This document shows, piece after piece, positions 1,112 through 60,125 of a stretch of DNA of 64,000 nt. The stretch is from a virus (taxonomy: Duplodnaviria > Caudoviricetes), in IMG/VR virus record IMGVR_UViG_3300037067_027643, positions 128,001 to 192,000 of that record; one strand, written 5' to 3'. The position numbers and the translations under genes were made by a program. The notes below the pieces were generated by a model. That model made no database searches, was not told where the DNA came from, and saw only the letters and a program-made list of their open reading frames with translations. The first letter of the stretch is position 1; each line of letters starts with the position of its first letter.

Positions 1112-1729
1112 TTATTCTTCTGATTTCATTAATTTGACAGCTTCTTTATATTTTTCATTAGCTGTAGCAAGTTCTCTATCTAAATTTTTAATGATATCAA
1201 TATGACGATCACGTAATTTCATCTTTTTATCTCTATCTTTTTCACCTTTGAAATCATGTACAAAAGATTTCATTAAACCTTCTTTTTTATTATTTAAATC
1301 CACAACATGTTTTTCTAATACTGAGATATCTACATTTTCTTTTAATACTCGTTTAACTGTATTTTCTATTAATCGTTCTAATTCACTTCTTTTCATATTT
1401 ATTTTTCCTTCGTTTTTATTATTGTATGGTAATGGATAATCTTTTAAAGTTTTATTATACAAGTCAATTGCTTCCTTTTCATCTACAATCCCGCTTTTTA
1501 TAAGTTTAATATAATAGAAACCGTTTTCAGTTAAGTGATCTCTACTGACTTCGGAAGCTAAATCATCCCGTTGTCCAGTATGTTCGCGCTCTATAATAAT
1601 ACCAACATCTAATTGTTTTTGAATAAAATCCACAGGTAAATCATGTTTTTTAGCTATGTCTTTTACAGACATCTTGTCGCCTTTACCACCTGGAATTAAA
1701 TCTTCATTTAATAAACTTCTAAGTTTCAT
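1112..1729 (-). CDS. DUF5661-like phage protein with LERLIENTVKRVLKE motif
   Basis: GIIIEREHT...RDHLTE..YYIKL resembles the DUF5661 pattern; C-terminal coiled coil. Confidence 0.55.
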   Translation of the reverse strand: MKLRSLLNEDLIPGGKGDKMSVKDIAKKHDLPVDFIQKQLDVGIIIEREHTGQRDDLASEVSRDHLTENGFYYIKLIKSGIVDEKEAIDLYNKTLKDYPLPYNNKNEGKINMKRSELERLIENTVKRVLKENVDISVLEKHVVDLNNKKEGLMKSFVHDFKGEKDRDKKMKLRDRHIDIIKNLDRELATANEKYKEAVKLMKSEE

Positions 1730-1744
1730 ATACTATTCCTAAAA

Positions 1745-2026
1745 TTAATTTTTATAACTACCATCATTTTTAAAATGTGTAAGATAAAATTTTATTTCAT
1801 TATCACTCATTTTTCTATCATCTACTTTTTTACCATGTTGATATATTTCAATACCTTTAGAAATTCCATGTTTATCTTCTATATATTTTACTTCCATTGG
1901 ATTTCCTTTCATATCTTTTAATTTTAATGTTTCTCCTGACATTAATCTTTGATAAAATGTATTAGATTCTTTTAAAATTTGTCTAACTTTATTTTCAATT
2001 AAAATATTTAATTCTGATAGTTTCAT
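1745..2026 (-). CDS. Hypothetical protein with N-terminal LNILIENKVRQILKE motif (candidate head-internal protein)
   Basis: ORF track; motif shared with other ORFs. Confidence 0.5.
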   Translation of the reverse strand: MKLSELNILIENKVRQILKESNTFYQRLMSGETLKLKDMKGNPMEVKYIEDKHGISKGIEIYQHGKKVDDRKMSDNEIKFYLTHFKNDGSYKN

Positions 2027-2595
2027 TTATTATCTCCAAATTTTTCTTGAACTATATTTTCTAACTTTTCTAGTTTTTCATTCATTATTTTTTCAACTTC
2101 TTTTTTATTTTGTTTTCCAATCCATTCTTCTACATCTCCTTGTTCAGTAACAAAATGTTTAGCTCCATAACTATCTATATATGATCGTACTTCTTCTTTT
2201 ATATCTTTAGTAAAAGCATTTATATTTTGTTGTATTACTTGTTTACTATATTCTTTAAATGTTCCGTTTTCTATTCGTTCATTATCTTCTTCTATAACAC
2301 AATCCATACACATACCTCTCATATTCCAGAACTTTTTATCTAAATGTTTTTTCATTGGACGGTGGCATTTTGGACATAATATAGGCATTAATATTAATTT
2401 TCTTACATCATCTAATTTTGTAACACTTTGTTTTATTCCATTTTTTATCTGCCATTGTTTTCCATCTTCTTCCCAGCAATCGCCCTCGATGTGATCTTCT
2501 TTTGATTTTTTATATCCAGCTATTATTTTGGTATTGTCTGTAACTTTACCATCTAAAATATTTCTAATACGTTGACTGTTTGTTAATTTTGACAT
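2023..2595 (-). CDS. Zn-finger phage protein
   Basis: CPKC...CMDC; overlaps next gene by 4 nt. Confidence 0.55.
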   Translation of the reverse strand: MSKLTNSQRIRNILDGKVTDNTKIIAGYKKSKEDHIEGDCWEEDGKQWQIKNGIKQSVTKLDDVRKLILMPILCPKCHRPMKKHLDKKFWNMRGMCMDCVIEEDNERIENGTFKEYSKQVIQQNINAFTKDIKEEVRSYIDSYGAKHFVTEQGDVEEWIGKQNKKEVEKIMNEKLEKLENIVQEKFGDNK

Positions 2596-2610
2596 TATAA
2601 ATAATTTTAA

Positions 2611-3111
2611 TTAATTTTGATATGGACGTATTTGTTTTAAAACTTCTGTTTCTGGAATAGCAAAATCCCAATGTGAAAAATCTTTATTTTGAATTTCGTA
2701 AGAATGTTTACCATTTTTAAATCCAATATATTTTAATTTAAAAATTCCACCTAAACCACTATCAGTTTTATAATATTTATTTTTTTCAGTTAAATCTTTT
2801 ATTGTATATTGTTCTTCTTTTATAATTTCTCTTACTTTATTTTCTATTAAATTTTCTAATTCTTGTTTTTTCATAACTTCCTTTATTATTTTTTTAACAT
2901 CTATATTTTCATTTATATGATTTAACCTCCATTGATAAAAATAATCTAATGCTTCCAGTTCTCTTTTATCATGAAATCGTTGTTTGGCATCTTGATATAT
3001 TTTTGATAATTTTACTTTATCCCTAATATTACCAAAAAGTTTTTCTAATATACTTCCAGCAAATAAAGCCCAAAAACTTATTTCTTGATGTGTTAATTCG
3101 TTGATATTCAT
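2611..3111 (-). CDS. Hypothetical protein with internal LENLIENKVREIIKEE motif
   Basis: ORF track; shared motif. Confidence 0.5.
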   Translation of the reverse strand: MNINELTHQEISFWALFAGSILEKLFGNIRDKVKLSKIYQDAKQRFHDKRELEALDYFYQWRLNHINENIDVKKIIKEVMKKQELENLIENKVREIIKEEQYTIKDLTEKNKYYKTDSGLGGIFKLKYIGFKNGKHSYEIQNKDFSHWDFAIPETEVLKQIRPYQN

Positions 3112-3115
3112 AATA

Positions 3116-3388
3116 TTATTTATGTTTATTAATAGATTTTATCTTTTTACGAACTAATTCTTCGACAACTTTTTTAATGTTTTCCTTGGAATTCTTATTT
3201 TCATTTTGTACATTAACATCTGTATTTTCATTCTTTTCATATTTCCAACCATTTTTTAATTCATCAAAAAATTTAAATTTAGCATCATCATCTAAATCAG
3301 CTGGAGTATCTACATTATATGATTGTAATGTATCTAAAAAGAAATTAAAATATTTCTTTTGAGTCTGGGATAAATTTCTTTTTGTCAT
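3116..3388 (-). CDS. Small late protein (MTKRNLSQTQKKYFNFF...), first gene of a minus-strand late operon
   Basis: Late motif at 3416-3425; YNVDTPADLDDDAKFKFF core. Confidence 0.6.
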   Translation of the reverse strand: MTKRNLSQTQKKYFNFFLDTLQSYNVDTPADLDDDAKFKFFDELKNGWKYEKNENTDVNVQNENKNSKENIKKVVEELVRKKIKSINKHK

Positions 3389-3620
3389 AATTACATTAAT
3401 ATTTTTATTACATAATATAAATAGTAAAAAAATAAATTAAATAAAATTTTATTTTTAAATATAAATAATTAAAAATATTTTAAAAATTCTATCATTGATT
3501 ATCAGCTACATACAATATTTTTAATAAAAAATTAAACAATTCAACAATTTTTTAATTTATTTTTTACTACTTATATAATATATTACATTTAATTAAACAT
3601 TAATTAAAATAAAAATAAAG

Positions 3621-3785
3621 ATGAAAACAAGAACAAAGAACGAAAATATATTCAAAGTCAATTTTAATTTTCCAACTGATTTATATGAATATATTAAAGA
3701 ACAATCTAAAATAGAATATATGAGTATGACTCAATATATTGTTGAATTGGTAAAAGAAGATTTAAAGAAGAAAGCTAAGATATAA
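3621..3785 (+). CDS. Ribbon-helix-helix (Arc/CopG-like) DNA-binding protein, 54 aa
   Basis: Hand-translated MKTRTKNENIFKVNFNFPTDLYEYIKEQSKIEYMSMTQYIVELVKEDLKKKAKI; beta-strand VNFNFP then two helices; stop 9 nt before tnpB. Confidence 0.7.
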   Translation: MKTRTKNENIFKVNFNFPTDLYEYIKEQSKIEYMSMTQYIVELVKEDLKKKAKI

Positions 3786-3794
3786 ATAATTTTA

Positions 3795-5492
3795 ATGTTA
3801 CAAGAATCAACATATTCAATGTCTTTTTATTCTACTGCTGATTTAAACAGTATTAAATATCAACATCTGCATGATAAAGCTGTTAAGATTAGAGATTTTA
3901 AGAATGATCTAAGTCAAAGAATATGTCAAAATCCAATGTCAATACAAGATTTAAGTAAGTTTGATTTTTTGAAATTATTTGATATTCAAATAGAGGGATT
4001 AGTTGGAAAGGAAATACAGCCAGCATTAAAAGAAGTCTATACATGTTATCAAAATAAATTTACTCAATTAAATCAAAAAATAAGTTTTAAAATACAAAGT
4101 AAACCACTAAAAATTGAATATTATAAAAAGAATACAAAGAAACACAAAAAAGGAGATATTAAAAATAATTCTATTTCATTAAAATCAACTCCTTTAACCA
4201 AAGTTATTTCTTTTCTTAGTAAATATTACAATGAAACAACTGTTGATTATTTGATTAAAGAAATTGATAATATTAATACAACTAAATCTTTAGAACAAAT
4301 TGAGTTTTACAAATCTATTCTTTATTATCTTAATAAATTTGGAACGAGACTTTTAAAGTTAGCTAACGATAGAAAAACGAGATTAATCAAAGAATTATTT
4401 TCTAAACCAATATTATTTAAAGAATTAACTTATGATGGAATAAATAATTTAGAATATATTGTTTCAAAAAATAAAAATAATCATTCTATAATAGAACATT
4501 TTATTTGTTTAAGTGGTTTTGGGAATTATATAGATGGGAAATATAAAAAAATTACTCGAGATGGTAAATTATATATCCCAATTAAATATAGTAAAAAATA
4601 TCATGGTGAGTTAAATGATTATAATCTAAAATATCAAACATCCTATACTATTCAATTTGTTAAAAATAAAATTAGAATTATACTTACAAAGAAAGGAAAT
4701 AGAGAAACTATTACAGATTGTGATAGTGCAGTTGGAGTAGATACTAACTTAAAACATAATTTATTTTCATTAAGTAACGGTAAGACAATCGACTACAATA
4801 GAGAATTGATTAAAAATTATGTCAAGTTTCAACTTAAAATAGATAAGAAACATGATTTTTTGTATAAATCAAATGATAAAGATTTAACCGAAAAACAGAT
4901 TAAACAAAAATACAATTTAATATCTAGAAAACAAACTTGGAATAGACGATTGATTGCTGAGCAAAATTTAAATGTTAGCGACTTAATCAAAGAGACTAAA
5001 TCGGATAACAAAGATCATATCATTTGTGAAGGACTTCTATTAAAAGATAAAACATGGTGTAGGAGTGAAGAATTCTTTGGAATTAAATACAGTAGATTAG
5101 TAAAGATGTTACATCTTTCCAACGTAAAGAATATTCTTGTTAATCAATGTAGAAATAAAAATATTCAACTTACAATAGTTCCATCTTACTATACTTCACA
5201 ACGTTGTTCTGTTTGTGGTTATGTAGACAGGGATAATAGAAAAACTCAGGAAGATTTTGTTTGTCAAAACTGTGGTCATTCAGAGAATGCCGATCTAAAT
5301 GCTAGCAAAAATATAAAACAATTCAAAGAGATAGATGTTCTGTCTCAGTCATTTTTAAAACTTGATAATAGTACTAGTTGGTTAGTTCCAAAGAAACTTG
5401 GAAAACAAACTATTAAAAAAGTTTTGGATGATTATTTTGAAAATAATAACAAATATAGTAATGATACTGATATTAATTATCAGTTAGAGTAG
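3795..5492 (+). CDS. tnpB: Large TnpB-family (IS200/IS605/Cas12f-like) RNA-guided nuclease, 565 aa
   Basis: RuvC-I AVGVDTNLKH, RuvC-II IICEGL, YTSQRCSVCG...FVCQNCG Zn ribbon, RuvC-III NADLNASKNI; all three acidic residues present; no tnpA nearby. Confidence 0.9.
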   Translation: MLQESTYSMSFYSTADLNSIKYQHLHDKAVKIRDFKNDLSQRICQNPMSIQDLSKFDFLKLFDIQIEGLVGKEIQPALKEVYTCYQNKFTQLNQKISFKIQSKPLKIEYYKKNTKKHKKGDIKNNSISLKSTPLTKVISFLSKYYNETTVDYLIKEIDNINTTKSLEQIEFYKSILYYLNKFGTRLLKLANDRKTRLIKELFSKPILFKELTYDGINNLEYIVSKNKNNHSIIEHFICLSGFGNYIDGKYKKITRDGKLYIPIKYSKKYHGELNDYNLKYQTSYTIQFVKNKIRIILTKKGNRETITDCDSAVGVDTNLKHNLFSLSNGKTIDYNRELIKNYVKFQLKIDKKHDFLYKSNDKDLTEKQIKQKYNLISRKQTWNRRLIAEQNLNVSDLIKETKSDNKDHIICEGLLLKDKTWCRSEEFFGIKYSRLVKMLHLSNVKNILVNQCRNKNIQLTIVPSYYTSQRCSVCGYVDRDNRKTQEDFVCQNCGHSENADLNASKNIKQFKEIDVLSQSFLKLDNSTSWLVPKKLGKQTIKKVLDDYFENNNKYSNDTDINYQLE

Positions 5493-5545
5493 GTAAAAGA
5501 CTGTATTACTGTTTTTTATTGAAAATTATTACTATTTCTTTTGAA
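5493..5545 (+). ncRNA. Presumptive omegaRNA 3' end plus guide
   Basis: Directly after the tnpB stop; hairpin AAAAGAC...GTTTTTT then ATTGAAA, followed by sequence homologous to the start of ORF 3116..3388. Boundaries inferred. Confidence 0.45.
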
Positions 5546-5570
5546 GTGGAGAAAGATTTCTTTTAGCCAT
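5522..5570 (-). pseudogene. Vestigial 5' end of a paralogue/allele of ORF 3116..3388 (MAKRNLSPLQKK*)
   Basis: 5533-5570 aligns to 3351-3388 at 29/38 nt; has its own late motif at 5599-5608 at nearly the same spacing (29 vs 28 nt). Confidence 0.8.
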
Positions 5571-5764
5571 AATATTAATCCTTTATTGATTATATTAGTA
5601 TAAATAGTTTGAAATTTCAAAATAATTTTGTATATTAAAATAAAATATTATATGTAAATACAAAAATATAAATAGTTTAAAAAATTTTAAAAATATTTTT
5701 CGTTTTACAATTTTTTAATTTATTTTTTACTATTTATATAAAAATAATCGTTACTAAAAAATAT

Positions 5765-5873
5765 AAATGAGTGGGAAACTAGATTTTGCAAACCTAGTTA
5801 TTTTAATGTAACCCTTTAAATCCCACTCGTTTTTTAAATAATATAAAGGGTTAAATAAAAAATAAGGGTTACA
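5765..5873 (+). ncRNA. Structured leader RNA (multi-stem, pseudoknot/switch) upstream of the PolA-like gene
   Basis: 5765-5776 pairs 5821-5832; 5777-5782 pairs 5794-5799; 5807-5818 can pair with 5844-5853 or 5864-5873. Confidence 0.6.
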
Positions 5874-5874
5874 A

Positions 5875-7638
5875 ATGAGTTCCATCCCAAAGTACAAAAT
5901 TTTTACACTCAACAATCTTGTTTTAGAAGATATGATAGGTTATAAACCTAAATATCATGCTTGTTATCAATATATGATACATACTCTAATTCAAAAAAAT
6001 ATTAATTTTAGGAATCAATCTACATTAAACTGGGTTCCTCTTAATATGAAAGTATTAAAATCAATATTTGAAGTTGATAAATCAACAGTAAATAATATAA
6101 TAAAAACTCTTACAAATAATAATATTCTACATAGAGTTGGAACACCTATTCCGGGAGTTCATAGTTATTCTTATGTATTCAACCAAGAACAAAATCACAA
6201 TTACTCTTTTAATGGAAATATAGATAATATTTATTTTATCAAAAGAATAAAACAGTTTGAAAAAACAAGACAAAAACAACGAGTAAAACCAATTAAAAAT
6301 TATAATCAAATATTCAACGCTACAAAAAAAGTTGTATGTGATTTTAAAAAAATGGACACTTTTGTCAACATGATAAGAAATGAAAATGTCAAAGCACAAT
6401 TTCAATACGCAGTTGACAAACTTAAAAAAAGAGATTATTATTTAGTCAAAGATAAAAATGGAAGAATTCATACCAATTTTACAAATTTAAGCAAAGATCT
6501 TCTATATTATACCGACACAGGTTACTTCGATGACTGTGCAAATTCACAACCTCTTTTGCTAAGTCAATTCGTAATATCCTATATTCAAAAGTATGAATCA
6601 ACATCGTCAAATGAAGTAGTCGTCAATGAATCTAATGATACATATATATATAATAGTGATTTTTCCGAAAAAAATGATGAAAATCAAAATCCAGATTTTG
6701 AAAATAATATATATAATAATATAGTATCTTATGGGTTGAATCCTAGTGGTAACTATAAGACTGATAACGGATTACAAATCTGGAATATCACACAGAATTT
6801 ACCACAAGATGTGTTAGATTTTCAAGAAAATTGTAAGACTGGAAAATTTTGGGACGACATTTTATATCATTTTAAAAGTGAAAGTAGAGAAACAGTAAAA
6901 ACAAAAACATTTGCTTCAGTTTTATATGGAGAAGCATATTATGAAAGTAAGTATAAAGACTATTTTAAATTGAAATATCCAAATGTATTAAGAATAGTTG
7001 AAGAAGATAAACAACGAAACGGATATAAGCATATAAGTAATGTTATGCAAAAAATGGAGAGTAAATTGTGGATTGAAACAATTTGTAAAAAATTGCATAA
7101 TAGAGGAATATTTAATTTCTATCCTGTACACGATAGTATTAATTTCTTTGGAGAAATGACAGAAGAAAAAAAACAAATAGCAGAAAAAATAATCAAGATG
7201 AGTTATAAAAAAATGTTTGGAATAGAATGTACACTACATTCAGGAGAATTTAAAAATCATTTAAATTCAGATTATACTTATTCATTTACAAATGCGTTAG
7301 GAATTAATTTTACGTATGAAAAAGATGATGAGTATGTTACTTTAACAGATCAAAATACCGTTACATATCTAACAGGTAGTAAAAAGAAAAAAGAATCTAA
7401 ATTAGATAGGATTCGGGTTAAGAAAACAGTCTTAGGTAGCGTATTAAAAAATTTAGTAGAAAATTGTAATAATGTAAATGCAATAGATGCTATTGGCTAT
7501 CATACATTTGGAGAGCTAATTAACTGTCAAATAAATGATTTTGAAGAAGAATATATGAAATATTTTTGTACTCAGTTACATAATAACGCAATAAATATAA
7601 ATTCAAATTCAAAGAAATTTCAACCTCTCAAAAAATAA
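5875..7638 (+). CDS. Divergent superfamily-A polymerase (TV-Pol-like) with N-terminal winged-helix-like region
   Basis: GRIHTNFTNL; motif A DCANSQP; motif B RETVKTKTFASVLYG; MQKMES; motif C VHDSI; no exonuclease domains seen. Confidence 0.7.
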   Translation: MSSIPKYKIFTLNNLVLEDMIGYKPKYHACYQYMIHTLIQKNINFRNQSTLNWVPLNMKVLKSIFEVDKSTVNNIIKTLTNNNILHRVGTPIPGVHSYSYVFNQEQNHNYSFNGNIDNIYFIKRIKQFEKTRQKQRVKPIKNYNQIFNATKKVVCDFKKMDTFVNMIRNENVKAQFQYAVDKLKKRDYYLVKDKNGRIHTNFTNLSKDLLYYTDTGYFDDCANSQPLLLSQFVISYIQKYESTSSNEVVVNESNDTYIYNSDFSEKNDENQNPDFENNIYNNIVSYGLNPSGNYKTDNGLQIWNITQNLPQDVLDFQENCKTGKFWDDILYHFKSESRETVKTKTFASVLYGEAYYESKYKDYFKLKYPNVLRIVEEDKQRNGYKHISNVMQKMESKLWIETICKKLHNRGIFNFYPVHDSINFFGEMTEEKKQIAEKIIKMSYKKMFGIECTLHSGEFKNHLNSDYTYSFTNALGINFTYEKDDEYVTLTDQNTVTYLTGSKKKKESKLDRIRVKKTVLGSVLKNLVENCNNVNAIDAIGYHTFGELINCQINDFEEEYMKYFCTQLHNNAININSNSKKFQPLKK

Positions 7639-7689
7639 TTTAAAATTTTTTAACTATTTATTTTAAATTATTCATTTAATTTTAAAATT

Positions 7690-8433
7690 ATGGGAAAAAG
7701 AAGAATGAAATCAATTTTTGATGAAGACGAAGAATTATTAATTAACACAGTGAAATTGAAGAAGTTAACAGACAGTGAATTAAAAGTCAAACATATTAAA
7801 ATTAAACACAAAAACGAACATCAAAAACAATTTACAAAGCTAATAGAAGACAATCAGATTACAATCTGTAAGGGTCCGGCAGGCACAGGTAAGAGCTTCC
7901 TTAGCATTGCTAAGGCATTTGAAATAATACAAGATGAAAGTCAACCACAACGTAAGATATTTTTAATTACTCCTGCTGTAGAAGCCGAAGAAAAAATAGG
8001 GTTTTTACCCGGAGATATGCTGGAAAAGCTTTATCCATACTTGTATTCGACATATTATATTATTGATATACTTATTGGAACAGAAACAAGAAAGAAATTA
8101 ATAGACAATGGTACAATAGAACCAATAGCTATAGGATTTCTTAGAGGTGTAAATATTGACAATGCTGTATTAATATGTGAAGAAGCTCAAAATACTTCTG
8201 TAACTACTATGTTAACTTTACTTACTAGAATTGGATTTAATAGTAAATTTATTATTTCTGGTGATATTGAACAAATTGATAATAAAGCAATAAGAACTGT
8301 TAAAGAAAGTGGTTTGGATTATGCTTATAACAATTTAGGTAGTATAGATGGAATTGGAAGATTTGAATTTATTAATGAAGATATTATAAGAAATAAATTA
8401 ATTTCAAAAATTTTAGAAAGATTTAAAAAATAA
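7690..8433 (+). CDS. phoH: PhoH-like ATPase
   Basis: GPAGTGKS, IGFLPGD, FLRG, EEAQN, LTRIG, SGDIEQID. Confidence 0.95.
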   Translation: MGKRRMKSIFDEDEELLINTVKLKKLTDSELKVKHIKIKHKNEHQKQFTKLIEDNQITICKGPAGTGKSFLSIAKAFEIIQDESQPQRKIFLITPAVEAEEKIGFLPGDMLEKLYPYLYSTYYIIDILIGTETRKKLIDNGTIEPIAIGFLRGVNIDNAVLICEEAQNTSVTTMLTLLTRIGFNSKFIISGDIEQIDNKAIRTVKESGLDYAYNNLGSIDGIGRFEFINEDIIRNKLISKILERFKK

Positions 8434-8472
8434 TTTGGATAATGTCAAAATAATTTTGTATATTAAAAATAT

Positions 8473-8697
8473 TAAAAAATAAATAATAACTATTAAATAA
8501 TAACAGATAACTATTAACAATTGAAAATTAACAGATTAACTAATGAATAATAAACAGTAACAATTAAAAAATAACAAACGACGATTAAATAATGACAAAT
8601 AACAAATAACAAATAACTATTAAAAAGTAACTATTACCTAGTAACAAATGAATGATGACAATTAAAAATTAATTATTAACTATTAAATGATAACAAA
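8473..8697 (+). repeat. Degenerate heptamer tandem array, about 32 units, consensus TRAMWAW
   Basis: TAACTAT TAAATAA TAACAGA TAACTAT TAACAAT TGAAAAT ... TAACAAA; 7-nt phase kept with a single 1-nt slip at 8536. Confidence 0.85.
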
Positions 8698-9020
8698 TGA
8701 TCAGAAAAATTAAATCCTTAACAAGACAGGAAGAACTTATAAGATATAAGAATGCAGTAAAGAAACAATTTCCAAATGCTGTTATAAAACAATATCATGA
8801 TAAATATTATGTTGAAGACGGAGAAGGAAATAAAATTAAATCAAAAGATTTTGATGTAAGTAATTCAAATACTGTATTTGGAGCTTGGAAACAGGCTAAA
8901 CTTATATTACAAAACATTCCTATTATAGAAAGAAATTTTTATAAATTTAGTGATGATAAGATTTATGATAGTTTTGTTAGGATAAAACCAGATAAGAACA
9001 GTAAATTAGATAAAGATTAA
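8697..9020 (+). CDS. Hypothetical basic protein embedded in heptamer arrays
   Basis: 107-aa ORF. Confidence 0.6.
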   Translation: MIRKIKSLTRQEELIRYKNAVKKQFPNAVIKQYHDKYYVEDGEGNKIKSKDFDVSNSNTVFGAWKQAKLILQNIPIIERNFYKFSDDKIYDSFVRIKPDKNSKLDKD

Positions 9021-9108
9021 CAAATGACAATTAAATAGTAACAGATAGCAAATAAATAATAATTATTGAACATTGACAAATAACAATTGAAAATTGAAAA
9101 TTAACTAA
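9018..9108 (+). repeat. Degenerate heptamer tandem array, 13 units
   Basis: TAACAAA TGACAAT TAAATAG TAACAGA TAGCAAA TAAATAA TAATTAT TGAACAT TGACAAA TAACAAT TGAAAAT TGAAAAT TAACTAA. Confidence 0.85.
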
Positions 9109-9145
9109 ATAAACTAATATGATAAAAGAGTAATAGTAATAATAT

Positions 9146-9871
9146 TTGGTGGAGATTGATATGGCTGTAGTAAATAACAACGTAAAACAACAAAAAACTA
9201 TTGTGAGTATTCCTATTAAGTACACAGATCTTTACAATCTGGATAAACTTAAAGAAATAGTAGAAAATCATACTAATATCAATAAAGCTAATGTTACTGT
9301 TAAAAATGAACCTAATGTAACAAATAACAATAATAGTATTGATATACATACTCCAATAGAAGATGAATTAATGGATGTATATCAACAGACTTGGATGGAT
9401 TTAAGATATAAATATCTTTTTGATAATCAGTTTGAATTATATGTCATTTGGATGGATTGTGTTGAAGAACATTTTATGGATATCTATTTTACAAGATTAG
9501 AAGATGATACTTTAACTGAATTTGATATTAAAAATAATGTAGATTATGATAATATTTGGTATCATTATTGTGAGTGTGGTAAAAATATCGATAATTTTTT
9601 CAAATGGATAAATTCGCCAAGTGAAGTAGAAGATAGTAAACCAGTTCAATTATCAATATCGGATATTTATACATTAATAGATTCAAAAATATCACAGTTA
9701 CCTAATTTTAGTATTATTACACCAAGGTATGTTATTTTAGTAGCTAAGTCAGCAAAACAAATTATTGAATTAAAAGGAAAGGTAATATTACCTAAAGATG
9801 TAACTTGTAGAGATACAATATATCATCATAAAAAAGAAGGTAATTTATTTGTTTCTATAATTGATTATTAA
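9146..9871 (+). CDS. Hypothetical protein (start uncertain)
   Basis: 241-aa ORF. Confidence 0.5.
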   Translation: MVEIDMAVVNNNVKQQKTIVSIPIKYTDLYNLDKLKEIVENHTNINKANVTVKNEPNVTNNNNSIDIHTPIEDELMDVYQQTWMDLRYKYLFDNQFELYVIWMDCVEEHFMDIYFTRLEDDTLTEFDIKNNVDYDNIWYHYCECGKNIDNFFKWINSPSEVEDSKPVQLSISDIYTLIDSKISQLPNFSIITPRYVILVAKSAKQIIELKGKVILPKDVTCRDTIYHHKKEGNLFVSIIDY

Positions 9872-60020: not shown

Positions 60021-60125
60021 TGGATTATTTCAATAAAACAATAAATTTTAATTAATTTTTTACTATTTATATAATGAAATAAAAATCCTATAAATCTTAT
60101 GTCCTGTAATTAAATCCATACAATA

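Follow-up and report, generated by a model that had tools for sequence, protein, structure and literature searches.

The 64,000-nt window analyzed here (bases 128001 to 192000 of the 285,744-bp virus record IMGVR_UViG_3300037067_027643; 25.5% G+C) contains a cassette consisting of a gene for a small Arc-like ribbon-helix-helix (RHH) protein, a gene for the RNA-guided nuclease TnpB, and the predicted scaffold of the cognate omegaRNA. The principal finding is that the predicted guide position of this omegaRNA holds the dead 5′ end of an allele of the neighboring gene, termed gene A here, and coincides exactly with that stump. The cassette is situated between diverged direct repeats; because the left repeat is joined to the body of gene A, this gene is whole, and we interpret the arrangement as a gene-restoring insertion. 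Judging from three independent relatives, the layout is recurrent, with different genes being affected in different phages.

The tnpB gene (3795-5492, plus strand) codes for a 565-aa protein of the IS607-associated clade with an intact zinc finger and an intact RuvC active site, whose catalytic residues, D316, E412, and D500, do not vary in either of two alignments, one of 19 and one of 10 relatives. The zinc ribbon (residues 444-507) is detected by the Pfam model Cas12f1-like_TNB (PF07282, 1.2e-16), and PDB matches to TnpB and Cas12f chains cover the same part of the protein; a sequence search with the first 280 residues matched nothing. Upstream on the same strand, with 9 nt between its end and tnpB, is the gene for the 54-aa RHH protein (3621-3785), which matches the Arc-like repressors of PHROG 582 (2.7e-5) and for which a Pfam search returned no significant match. 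Both results agree with a first-pass annotation of the window, which had described a TnpB with an intact RuvC site preceded by an RHH gene. Small open reading frames (ORFs) of 48-54 aa, likewise coupled to tnpB, occupy the same slot in the loci L144, L009, and P0007, an RHH identity not being confirmed for those of L144 and L009; in other relatives, the slot contains a remnant of a MerR-type helix-turn-helix domain or nothing. RHH partners of TnpB have been described as Arc repressors that act on the element promoter (bioRxiv 10.64898/2026.09.24.754181), and, by its family, the window protein is a candidate for the same role. In L009, a 332-kb phage contig, the pair of small ORF and tnpB (3560-5740) is flanked on either side by tRNA-like sequence.

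A search of 5.8 billion proteins revealed a large family of such TnpBs (~510-580 aa), many of them encoded on contigs of 100-360 kb, with 4,915 matches at E ≤ 1e-3 among 50%-identity representatives when the search was exhaustive; for the clade, we counted 55 IMG/VR loci and 384 metagenome stretches. Relatives with 52-55% identity (L006 and L143) have a Resolvase-type serine recombinase, TnpA, of ~200 aa directly upstream of tnpB, and TnpA is also borne by L012, L014, L016, L017, L045, and L047. Going by this gene content, the TnpB family is of the IS607 type. The whole 286-kb genome from which the window derives encodes no serine recombinase; the first-pass annotation had seen no transposase gene with the cassette. 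Its description of a transposase-free system stands to the extent that TnpA is missing from this genome, but, as relatives carry TnpA, the cassette is a transposase-less derivative and not a representative of a transposase-free class. We hence classify the window copy, with its Arc-like RHH gene, TnpB, and predicted omegaRNA, as a transposase-less derivative of IS607, not a complete IS607.

The extent of the omegaRNA could be predicted from the conservation of the right end of the element. Downstream of the tnpB stop, seven close relatives and both tnpB copies of the genome have in common a hairpin, a T-run, and a stretch that concludes with ...TTGAAAAYTRTNACTAT; past the final ...ACTAT or ...TTAT, these relatives diverge completely. 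In the window, the weak hairpin and the T-run are located at 5495-5518, and the family-conserved right end reaches position 5535 (...ATTGAAAATTATTACTAT). About 25 further metagenome loci show the same terminus, ACTAT, or, in other subfamilies, TTAT or CGGA, followed by unrelated DNA. In an RNAalifold analysis of 11 sequences, this terminus is base-paired to a segment ~70 nt upstream, which gives the helix P1 (5455-5465 with 5525-5535), accompanied by the hairpin P2 (5467-5472 with 5478-5483), both with covariation. Across these sequences, the two-helix structure has 87% of cells paired, versus 34-58% with the partner slid; changes on both sides are seen in 12 of 17 pairs, and the covariation score was reached in none of 500 shuffles. 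The window copy itself bears compensatory changes (TAGTAAT/ATTACTA versus TAGTTGC/GTAACTA in relatives). As the terminus constitutes the 3′ strand of a covarying helix, we place the end of the scaffold at 5535, the 3′ part of the scaffold (5328-5535, plus strand) being delineated by RNAalifold and pair counts and beginning with another hairpin (5328-5346). An Rfam search of the region recovered neither RAGATH-18 nor another omegaRNA family, and no intron was found. The left end of the window cassette could not be defined from relatives, as the upstream sequence is too diverged.

Guides of omegaRNAs are known to derive from the flank just beyond the right end of the element (PMC8612924). With a scaffold end at 5535, this rule places the candidate guide template at 5536-5555 on the plus strand (TTCTTTTGAAGTGGAGAAAG), which is the antisense of codons 12 to 6 of the stump. 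The first-pass annotation had likewise assigned the guide position to a dead allele of the 5′ end of gene A, and this holds, the flank from 5536 onward being the stump. Its boundary needs correction: it had the element ending with a hairpin that terminates in ATTGAAA and the guide starting at about 5522, whereas the conserved right end runs 14 nt further. It had also noted that removal of one base extends the match to gene A up to this boundary; the additional stretch is part of the right end, a sequence found as well after the other tnpB of the genome and after the tnpB genes of relatives in unrelated contexts, and so does not testify to homology with gene A.

Gene A (3116-3388, minus strand) is intact, starts MTKRNLSQTQKKYF, and codes for a 90-aa protein of PHROG 28651, a family of unknown function; its first 12 codons are part of the left repeat. 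The stump (5532-5570, minus strand), a remnant of an allele termed gene A′, starts with an ATG at 5570-5568 and has 12 codons (5535-5570), which read MAKRNLSPLQKK prior to a stop; gene A itself begins MTKRNLSQTQKK. Codon 12 of the stump is cut after its second base, with the third base and the TAG (5532-5534) being contributed by the right end of the element. On comparing the first 38 nt of gene A with both strands of the genome, the sole other site with at least 27 of 38 matches is 5533-5570 (29 of 38), which corroborates the dead minus-strand copy proposed in the first-pass annotation. The left direct repeat (DR_L, 3351-3578) comprises codons 12 to 1 of gene A, a divergent intergenic region of the kind between genes A and B, the motif TATAAATAG (3416-3424), and a 35-bp block (3544-3578); the right direct repeat (DR_R, 5533-5741) comprises the stump, the intergenic region, TATAAATAG (5599-5607), and the 35-bp block (5707-5741) upstream of gene B. 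They are colinear over ~210-230 nt, with the gene start, the equally spaced TATAAATAG, and the 35-bp block in the same order. The two copies of the block on the plus strand match at 34 of 35 positions, with none expected in shuffles, and its duplication, too, had been recognized earlier. Identity over the whole repeat is ~68%, and the central, A+T-rich part of the intergenic repeat resembles other intergenic regions of this genome about as closely as it does its partner; hence, it is the ends and their order, not the overall identity, that argue for duplication. The TATAAATAG motif is on the plus strand in both repeats, pointing toward RHH-tnpB and gene B, respectively, and thus away from gene A and the stump, contrary to the earlier assignment of a late promoter of its own to the stump. 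A scan for sigma-70 promoters was uninformative in this A+T-rich DNA (25 sites versus 24.8 expected).

The resident allele of gene A offers a natural comparison with the candidate guide. The counterpart of the target on the plus strand (3350-3373) consists of ATAT (3350-3353) and the ensuing 20 nt (3354-3373), and the right end of the element has CTAT at the corresponding place, TAT being common to both. Resident gene A agrees with the candidate guide at 13 of 20 positions; nt 1-9 are identical, and the mismatches fall at nt 10-13, 15, 18, and 20. This is the opposite of what the first-pass annotation had stated, namely, that the element's own copy is mismatched in the guide-proximal bases: it is the 9 nt proximal to the target-adjacent motif (TAM) that match. 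In the IS607 of Clostridium botulinum, the only such system whose TAM has been measured, the TAM is TGGG and the scaffold ends with UCGG, with one discriminating position sparing the element (PMC10690162). By analogy, we tentatively predict that the TAM here is ATAT, as against CTAT or TTAT at the end of the element, based on three sites: the resident alleles of the window and of L013 and the flank at the left end of a complete IS607 in L014. In the structure of the IS607 TnpB of ISFba1, contacts are made at bp 1-14 of the heteroduplex and mismatches are poorly tolerated (PMC11061315); by the same reasoning, the mismatches at nt 10-13 could plausibly shield resident gene A from being cut.

To survey comparable loci, ~70 distinct loci with usable flanks were examined, at both the DNA and the protein level, for similarity between the 400 nt following tnpB and the 2-3.5 kb preceding it. 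In L013, which belongs to another phage and has a TnpB 36% identical to that of the window, the right-end flank consists of codons 1-37 of a minus-strand gene; this truncated gene start (110 nt) still abuts the stop of the preceding gene, and an intact 129-aa copy across the element displays 71% protein identity over those codons. In L034, a 255-kb contig, the terminal ...ACGGA leads into the 3′-most 26 codons of an ATPase gene on the plus strand, a fragment that still overlaps the start of the following methyltransferase gene; the intact full-length ATPase gene is on the left and reads TGGGA at the homologous point. L014 is a variant, in which a complete IS607 is embedded in a partial, dead copy of a TilS-like gene, with codons 1-33 to its left and ~48-83 to its right, and the intact TilS-like gene begins 130 nt farther along. 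When the window is included, each of the four loci has an intact copy that departs from the presumptive guide within the first 10 nt of the latter, the first mismatch being at nt 3-5 in L013, L014, and L034. The earlier reading of the window, a cassette flanked by a second gene start and promoter region that keep gene A intact, thus has two close parallels and one variant. Similarities between flanks in other loci had different causes and did not represent gene-restoring duplications: a shared promoter motif (L063/L005), a repeated hairpin (L076), a remnant of a second IS607 tnpA (L092), and flanking paralogs or repeat-domain genes (L035, L047, L088, L012, and L081); the similarity in L099 was likewise rejected. 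In L010, L013, and L015, all from one subfamily, the last bases on the left before the element are precisely the ATG of a gene that runs leftward (...CCAT by the element), suggesting either a target preference or a left end that supplies the expression signals of that gene.

The genome contains only two tnpB copies. The second (G000:C1:31110-32759, corresponding to 5093-6760 of L004; minus strand) encodes a paralog with 75% amino acid identity and is found in an intergenic spacer, 70 nt upstream of the ORF for a B-family DNA polymerase, with neither an RHH gene nor a flanking repeat. It retains P1 and P2 of the omegaRNA and the right end (...ATCATTATTAT), after which a candidate guide begins CGGTGCATCAATT. 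The pair has a dN of 0.18 and a dS of 0.82 (dN/dS, ~0.22), indicating that both paralogs are maintained as proteins by purifying selection.

In light of the above, we propose, as a reading that we hold to have an even chance of being right, that the cassette cuts cassette-free alleles of the stump type, leading to homing or to the destruction of competitors, in combination with the gene-restoring architecture. The omegaRNA would be read through 5535 into the stump, furnishing a guide of ~16-20 nt (5536-5555), with which TnpB would cut alleles having stump-type sequence after the TAM, tentatively ATAT. The right end of the element, with its CTAT, would be spared, comparable to the discrimination of UCGG from the TGGG TAM in the C. 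botulinum IS607, and the resident allele, which has ATAT, would pair at nt 1-9 only. If a cassette-free relative took part in a mixed infection, its cut allele could be repaired from the cassette-bearing genome, thereby copying DR_L along with the cassette, or else the competitor might be destroyed. According to the literature, 200-bp repeats of this kind are not made by IS607 transposition, and transposition alone is therefore insufficient to account for the diverged flanking repeats. Given also that an identical duplicate in cis would present an exact TAM-flanked self-target, a diverged phage lineage is the most likely source of the replacement gene end, which might have arrived with the cassette or, just as well, by recombination between phages with the element at neighboring sites. 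More tentatively, and as a generalization that may well fail, it is conceivable that IS607-derived TnpB/omegaRNA cassettes in jumbo phages are an RNA-guided counterpart of free-standing homing endonucleases: entry would displace a gene end into the guide slot, the nuclease would thereby be programmed against the displaced allele, a diverged, guide-resistant replacement would come from the previous host, and coinfection with recombination would allow spread without a transposase.

Several observations weigh against these proposals. The layout is a minority state: a survey of homologous loci for the duplicated-gene architecture, as suggested in the first-pass annotation, did yield three relatives, but the total is only 4 of the ~70 loci, and the second tnpB copy of the same genome is in an intergenic spacer without a repeat. 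The guide window (13 of 20) is no more diverged than the whole repeat (~68%) and thus carries no specific recoding signature. The left-end junction of L013, GTAT, does not fit a TAM of ATAT, and, with three sites in its favor and this misfit, we treat the TAM as a prediction. L014 conflicts with an element that carries the replacement on its left side, the right repeat may persist merely as the carrier of the promoters of gene B, and the omegaRNA and its 3′ end are predicted from sequence. The first-pass annotation had also pointed to related phage genomes as a source of empty alleles. Neither a cassette-free allele nor a full-length stump-type allele was found in the phage, IMG/VR, and protein collections searched: gene A and gene B queries recovered no relatives in IMG/VR, where a degenerate pattern for the first 12 codons of either allele also had 0 matches; the sole match of gene B among 5.8 billion proteins came from a strain with 99% identity, on a contig of 2.1 kb that reaches 40 nt upstream; and an exact look-up of gene A gave one 592-nt contig that ends inside the left repeat and is uninformative on the state of the allele. 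All of the strains found for the locus are near-identical.

The anatomy would be explained equally well by a passive relic, in which an IS607 entered gene A′ or a partial duplicate with an intact copy being present or subsequently acquired, TnpA was later lost, and the short stump persists beside the promoters of gene B, with TnpB only guarding its own site and no spread between phages. Such a compensated insertion predicts every sequence feature, the ordinary divergence of the guide window is in keeping with it, and L014 indeed looks like an IS607 in a dead partial duplicate. We nevertheless regard it as somewhat doubtful: a genome devoid of TnpA has no excision to guard, and tnpB, with the dN/dS given above, and the omegaRNA helices have been kept all the same; a duplicate formed in cis would be an exact TAM-flanked target; and useless DNA is usually deleted fast by phages, yet the 110-nt stump is kept in L013. 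With no excision to guard and both protein and RNA conserved nonetheless, the cutting of stump-type alleles appears to be the most economical role. The benefit of such cutting could lie in killing without homing, the guide hitting the gene A allele of relatives too diverged for gene conversion to the advantage of the host phage. This variant draws on the same sequence evidence as our proposal, has precedents among phage homing endonucleases whose flanks are too divergent (review PMC13565253), and would suit repeats that are only ~68% identical; it is not separable from homing by sequence and no target phage is known, and we judge it unlikely.

Two further possibilities have far less to commend them. 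A guide derived from a gene start beside a divergent promoter region might imply a regulator akin to TldR, with TnpB and its omegaRNA controlling transcription by binding either at the start of resident gene A or within the duplicated promoter region, and phage TldR proteins are reported to pair with a replacement gene copy (bioRxiv 10.1101/2023.11.30.569447). However, TldRs have an inactivated RuvC site, whereas the triad is intact and invariant here, contiguous pairing at the resident site is limited to 9 nt, and the family has ordinary transposon contexts with TnpA, all of which make such a function very improbable. Shared promoter motifs and chance in DNA with 75% A+T could also mimic a duplication, as is suggested by the intergenic middle, which matches many other intergenic regions no less closely than its partner, and by a third, partial 35-bp block near 60046-60075. 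This we find hardly credible, as the 38-nt gene start is unique genome-wide, begins at an ATG that keeps its distance from TATAAATAG, and retains its order relative to the 35-bp block, and the homology sets in exactly at the independently defined right-end boundary.

Beyond the cassette, gene B (5875-7638, plus strand), whose promoter region is the one duplicated, encodes a 587-aa protein that belongs to no Pfam or PHROG family. The third copy of the 35-bp block (60046-60075; 28-29 of 29-30 nt) implies that the block is probably a reused plus-strand promoter or operator; binding by the Arc-like protein, if it occurs, would place gene B and the 60046-60075 site under joint control with the cassette. 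The leader of gene B (5769-5862), between the right repeat and the gene, contains strong nested hairpins (AGTGGGA...TCCCACT with a subsequent T-run, and AACCCTTTAAA...TATAAAGGGTT), which might constitute an attenuator or terminator; an Rfam search gave only a subthreshold match of the hairpin at 5801-5861 to an miRNA model (E = 0.059). On the other side, adjoining gene A, three small minus-strand genes (1112-1729, 1745-2026, and 2611-3111, within 1112-3111) have in common the motif L-I-E-N-K/T-V-R/K-x-I/V-L/I-K-E, suggesting a paralogous family. Elsewhere in the genome, S-K-A-Q-Q-K-F-F-N marks a weak relative of gene A itself.

The record is labeled a provirus in IMG/VR and has a CheckV completeness of 100%. 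A public run, assembled independently, gave a sequence identical to the window over 2820-9492, and the locus is present in two DNA sequencing runs (groundwater and landfill), with no RNA run among those listed; a megablast of 12 kb of the locus against 50,697 phage records gave no match. The jumbo phage has T4-like traits, including a PhoH gene and a B-family polymerase gene followed by a GIY-YIG gene. The polymerase ORF (659 aa; 2326-5021 of L004, minus strand) directly precedes the gene for a 238-aa GIY-YIG endonuclease, raising the possibility that a homing endonuclease splits the polymerase, as is known from some T4-like phages.

TnpB is known to guard the site of its own transposon. The window locus and its three independent relatives are concrete natural candidates for a different arrangement, in which a fragment of the sensitive allele would serve as the guide template and a resistant replacement would keep the gene working. 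If the predicted cleavage takes place, it would amount to a transposase-free, RNA-guided exchange of gene cassettes among giant phages, would explain why solo tnpB genes are common in jumbo-phage genomes, and would provide a compact nuclease with an A/T-type TAM and a defined scaffold end. RNA-guided homing by TnpB, the Arc partner, and, as a concept, nonrestorative homing into phages are already known; duplicated gene ends on either side of a TnpB element were not found described in a limited literature search.

Among known systems, integrative elements that bring a replacement gene end, such as e14 or phage 21 in icd and prophages in tRNA genes, have an integrase of their own and a defined att site. 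As in these, the intact gene here is composed of its body and a diverged end on the side of the element, with the displaced original end left as a stump at the other junction; in contrast to them, no recombinase is present, and the displaced end occupies the predicted guide slot of an RNA-guided nuclease. IStrons, which combine a group I intron with an IS605 or IS607 element and TnpB, also place a TnpB element inside a gene and render it harmless, but by RNA splicing instead of a duplicate gene end in the DNA. The Arc repressors of IS605-family elements (bioRxiv 10.64898/2026.09.24.754181) are similar in that a small RHH gene is found upstream of tnpB and downstream of the promoter region; here, the element is of the IS607 type and phage borne, and the candidate bound block also lies upstream of gene B.

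The characterized IS607 systems, namely, the TnpB of the C. botulinum IStron, in which TnpB drives homing (PMC10690162), and that of ISFba1 (PMC11061315), resemble the window cassette in having a nuclease with RuvC and zinc-finger elements, which in relatives of the window copy is preceded by TnpA, a scaffold that overlaps the 3′ end of the gene and stops at the right end, a flank-templated guide, and a right-end terminus that differs from the presumed TAM at one position. They differ in their size (~390-400 aa, versus ~540-565 aa here) and in their G-rich termini, as opposed to the A/T-rich ACTAT, and the window cassette is further set apart by a genome without TnpA and by its 200-bp diverged flanking repeats. 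Homing of TnpB into coinfecting phages has been discussed only as a concept (PMC13565253), and a further parallel is the intronless homing of the free-standing endonucleases SegF, SegG, and MobE of T-even phages (reviewed in PMC13565253). In both cases, a nuclease gene has conserved phage genes on either side, the allele of a neighboring gene in a coinfecting relative is the supposed target, and sequence differences of the resident copy protect, or would protect, the element's own genome. The distinction is that specificity would come here, as far as can be read from the sequence, from an RNA templated by the retained fragment of the sensitive allele, instead of from contacts between protein and DNA.

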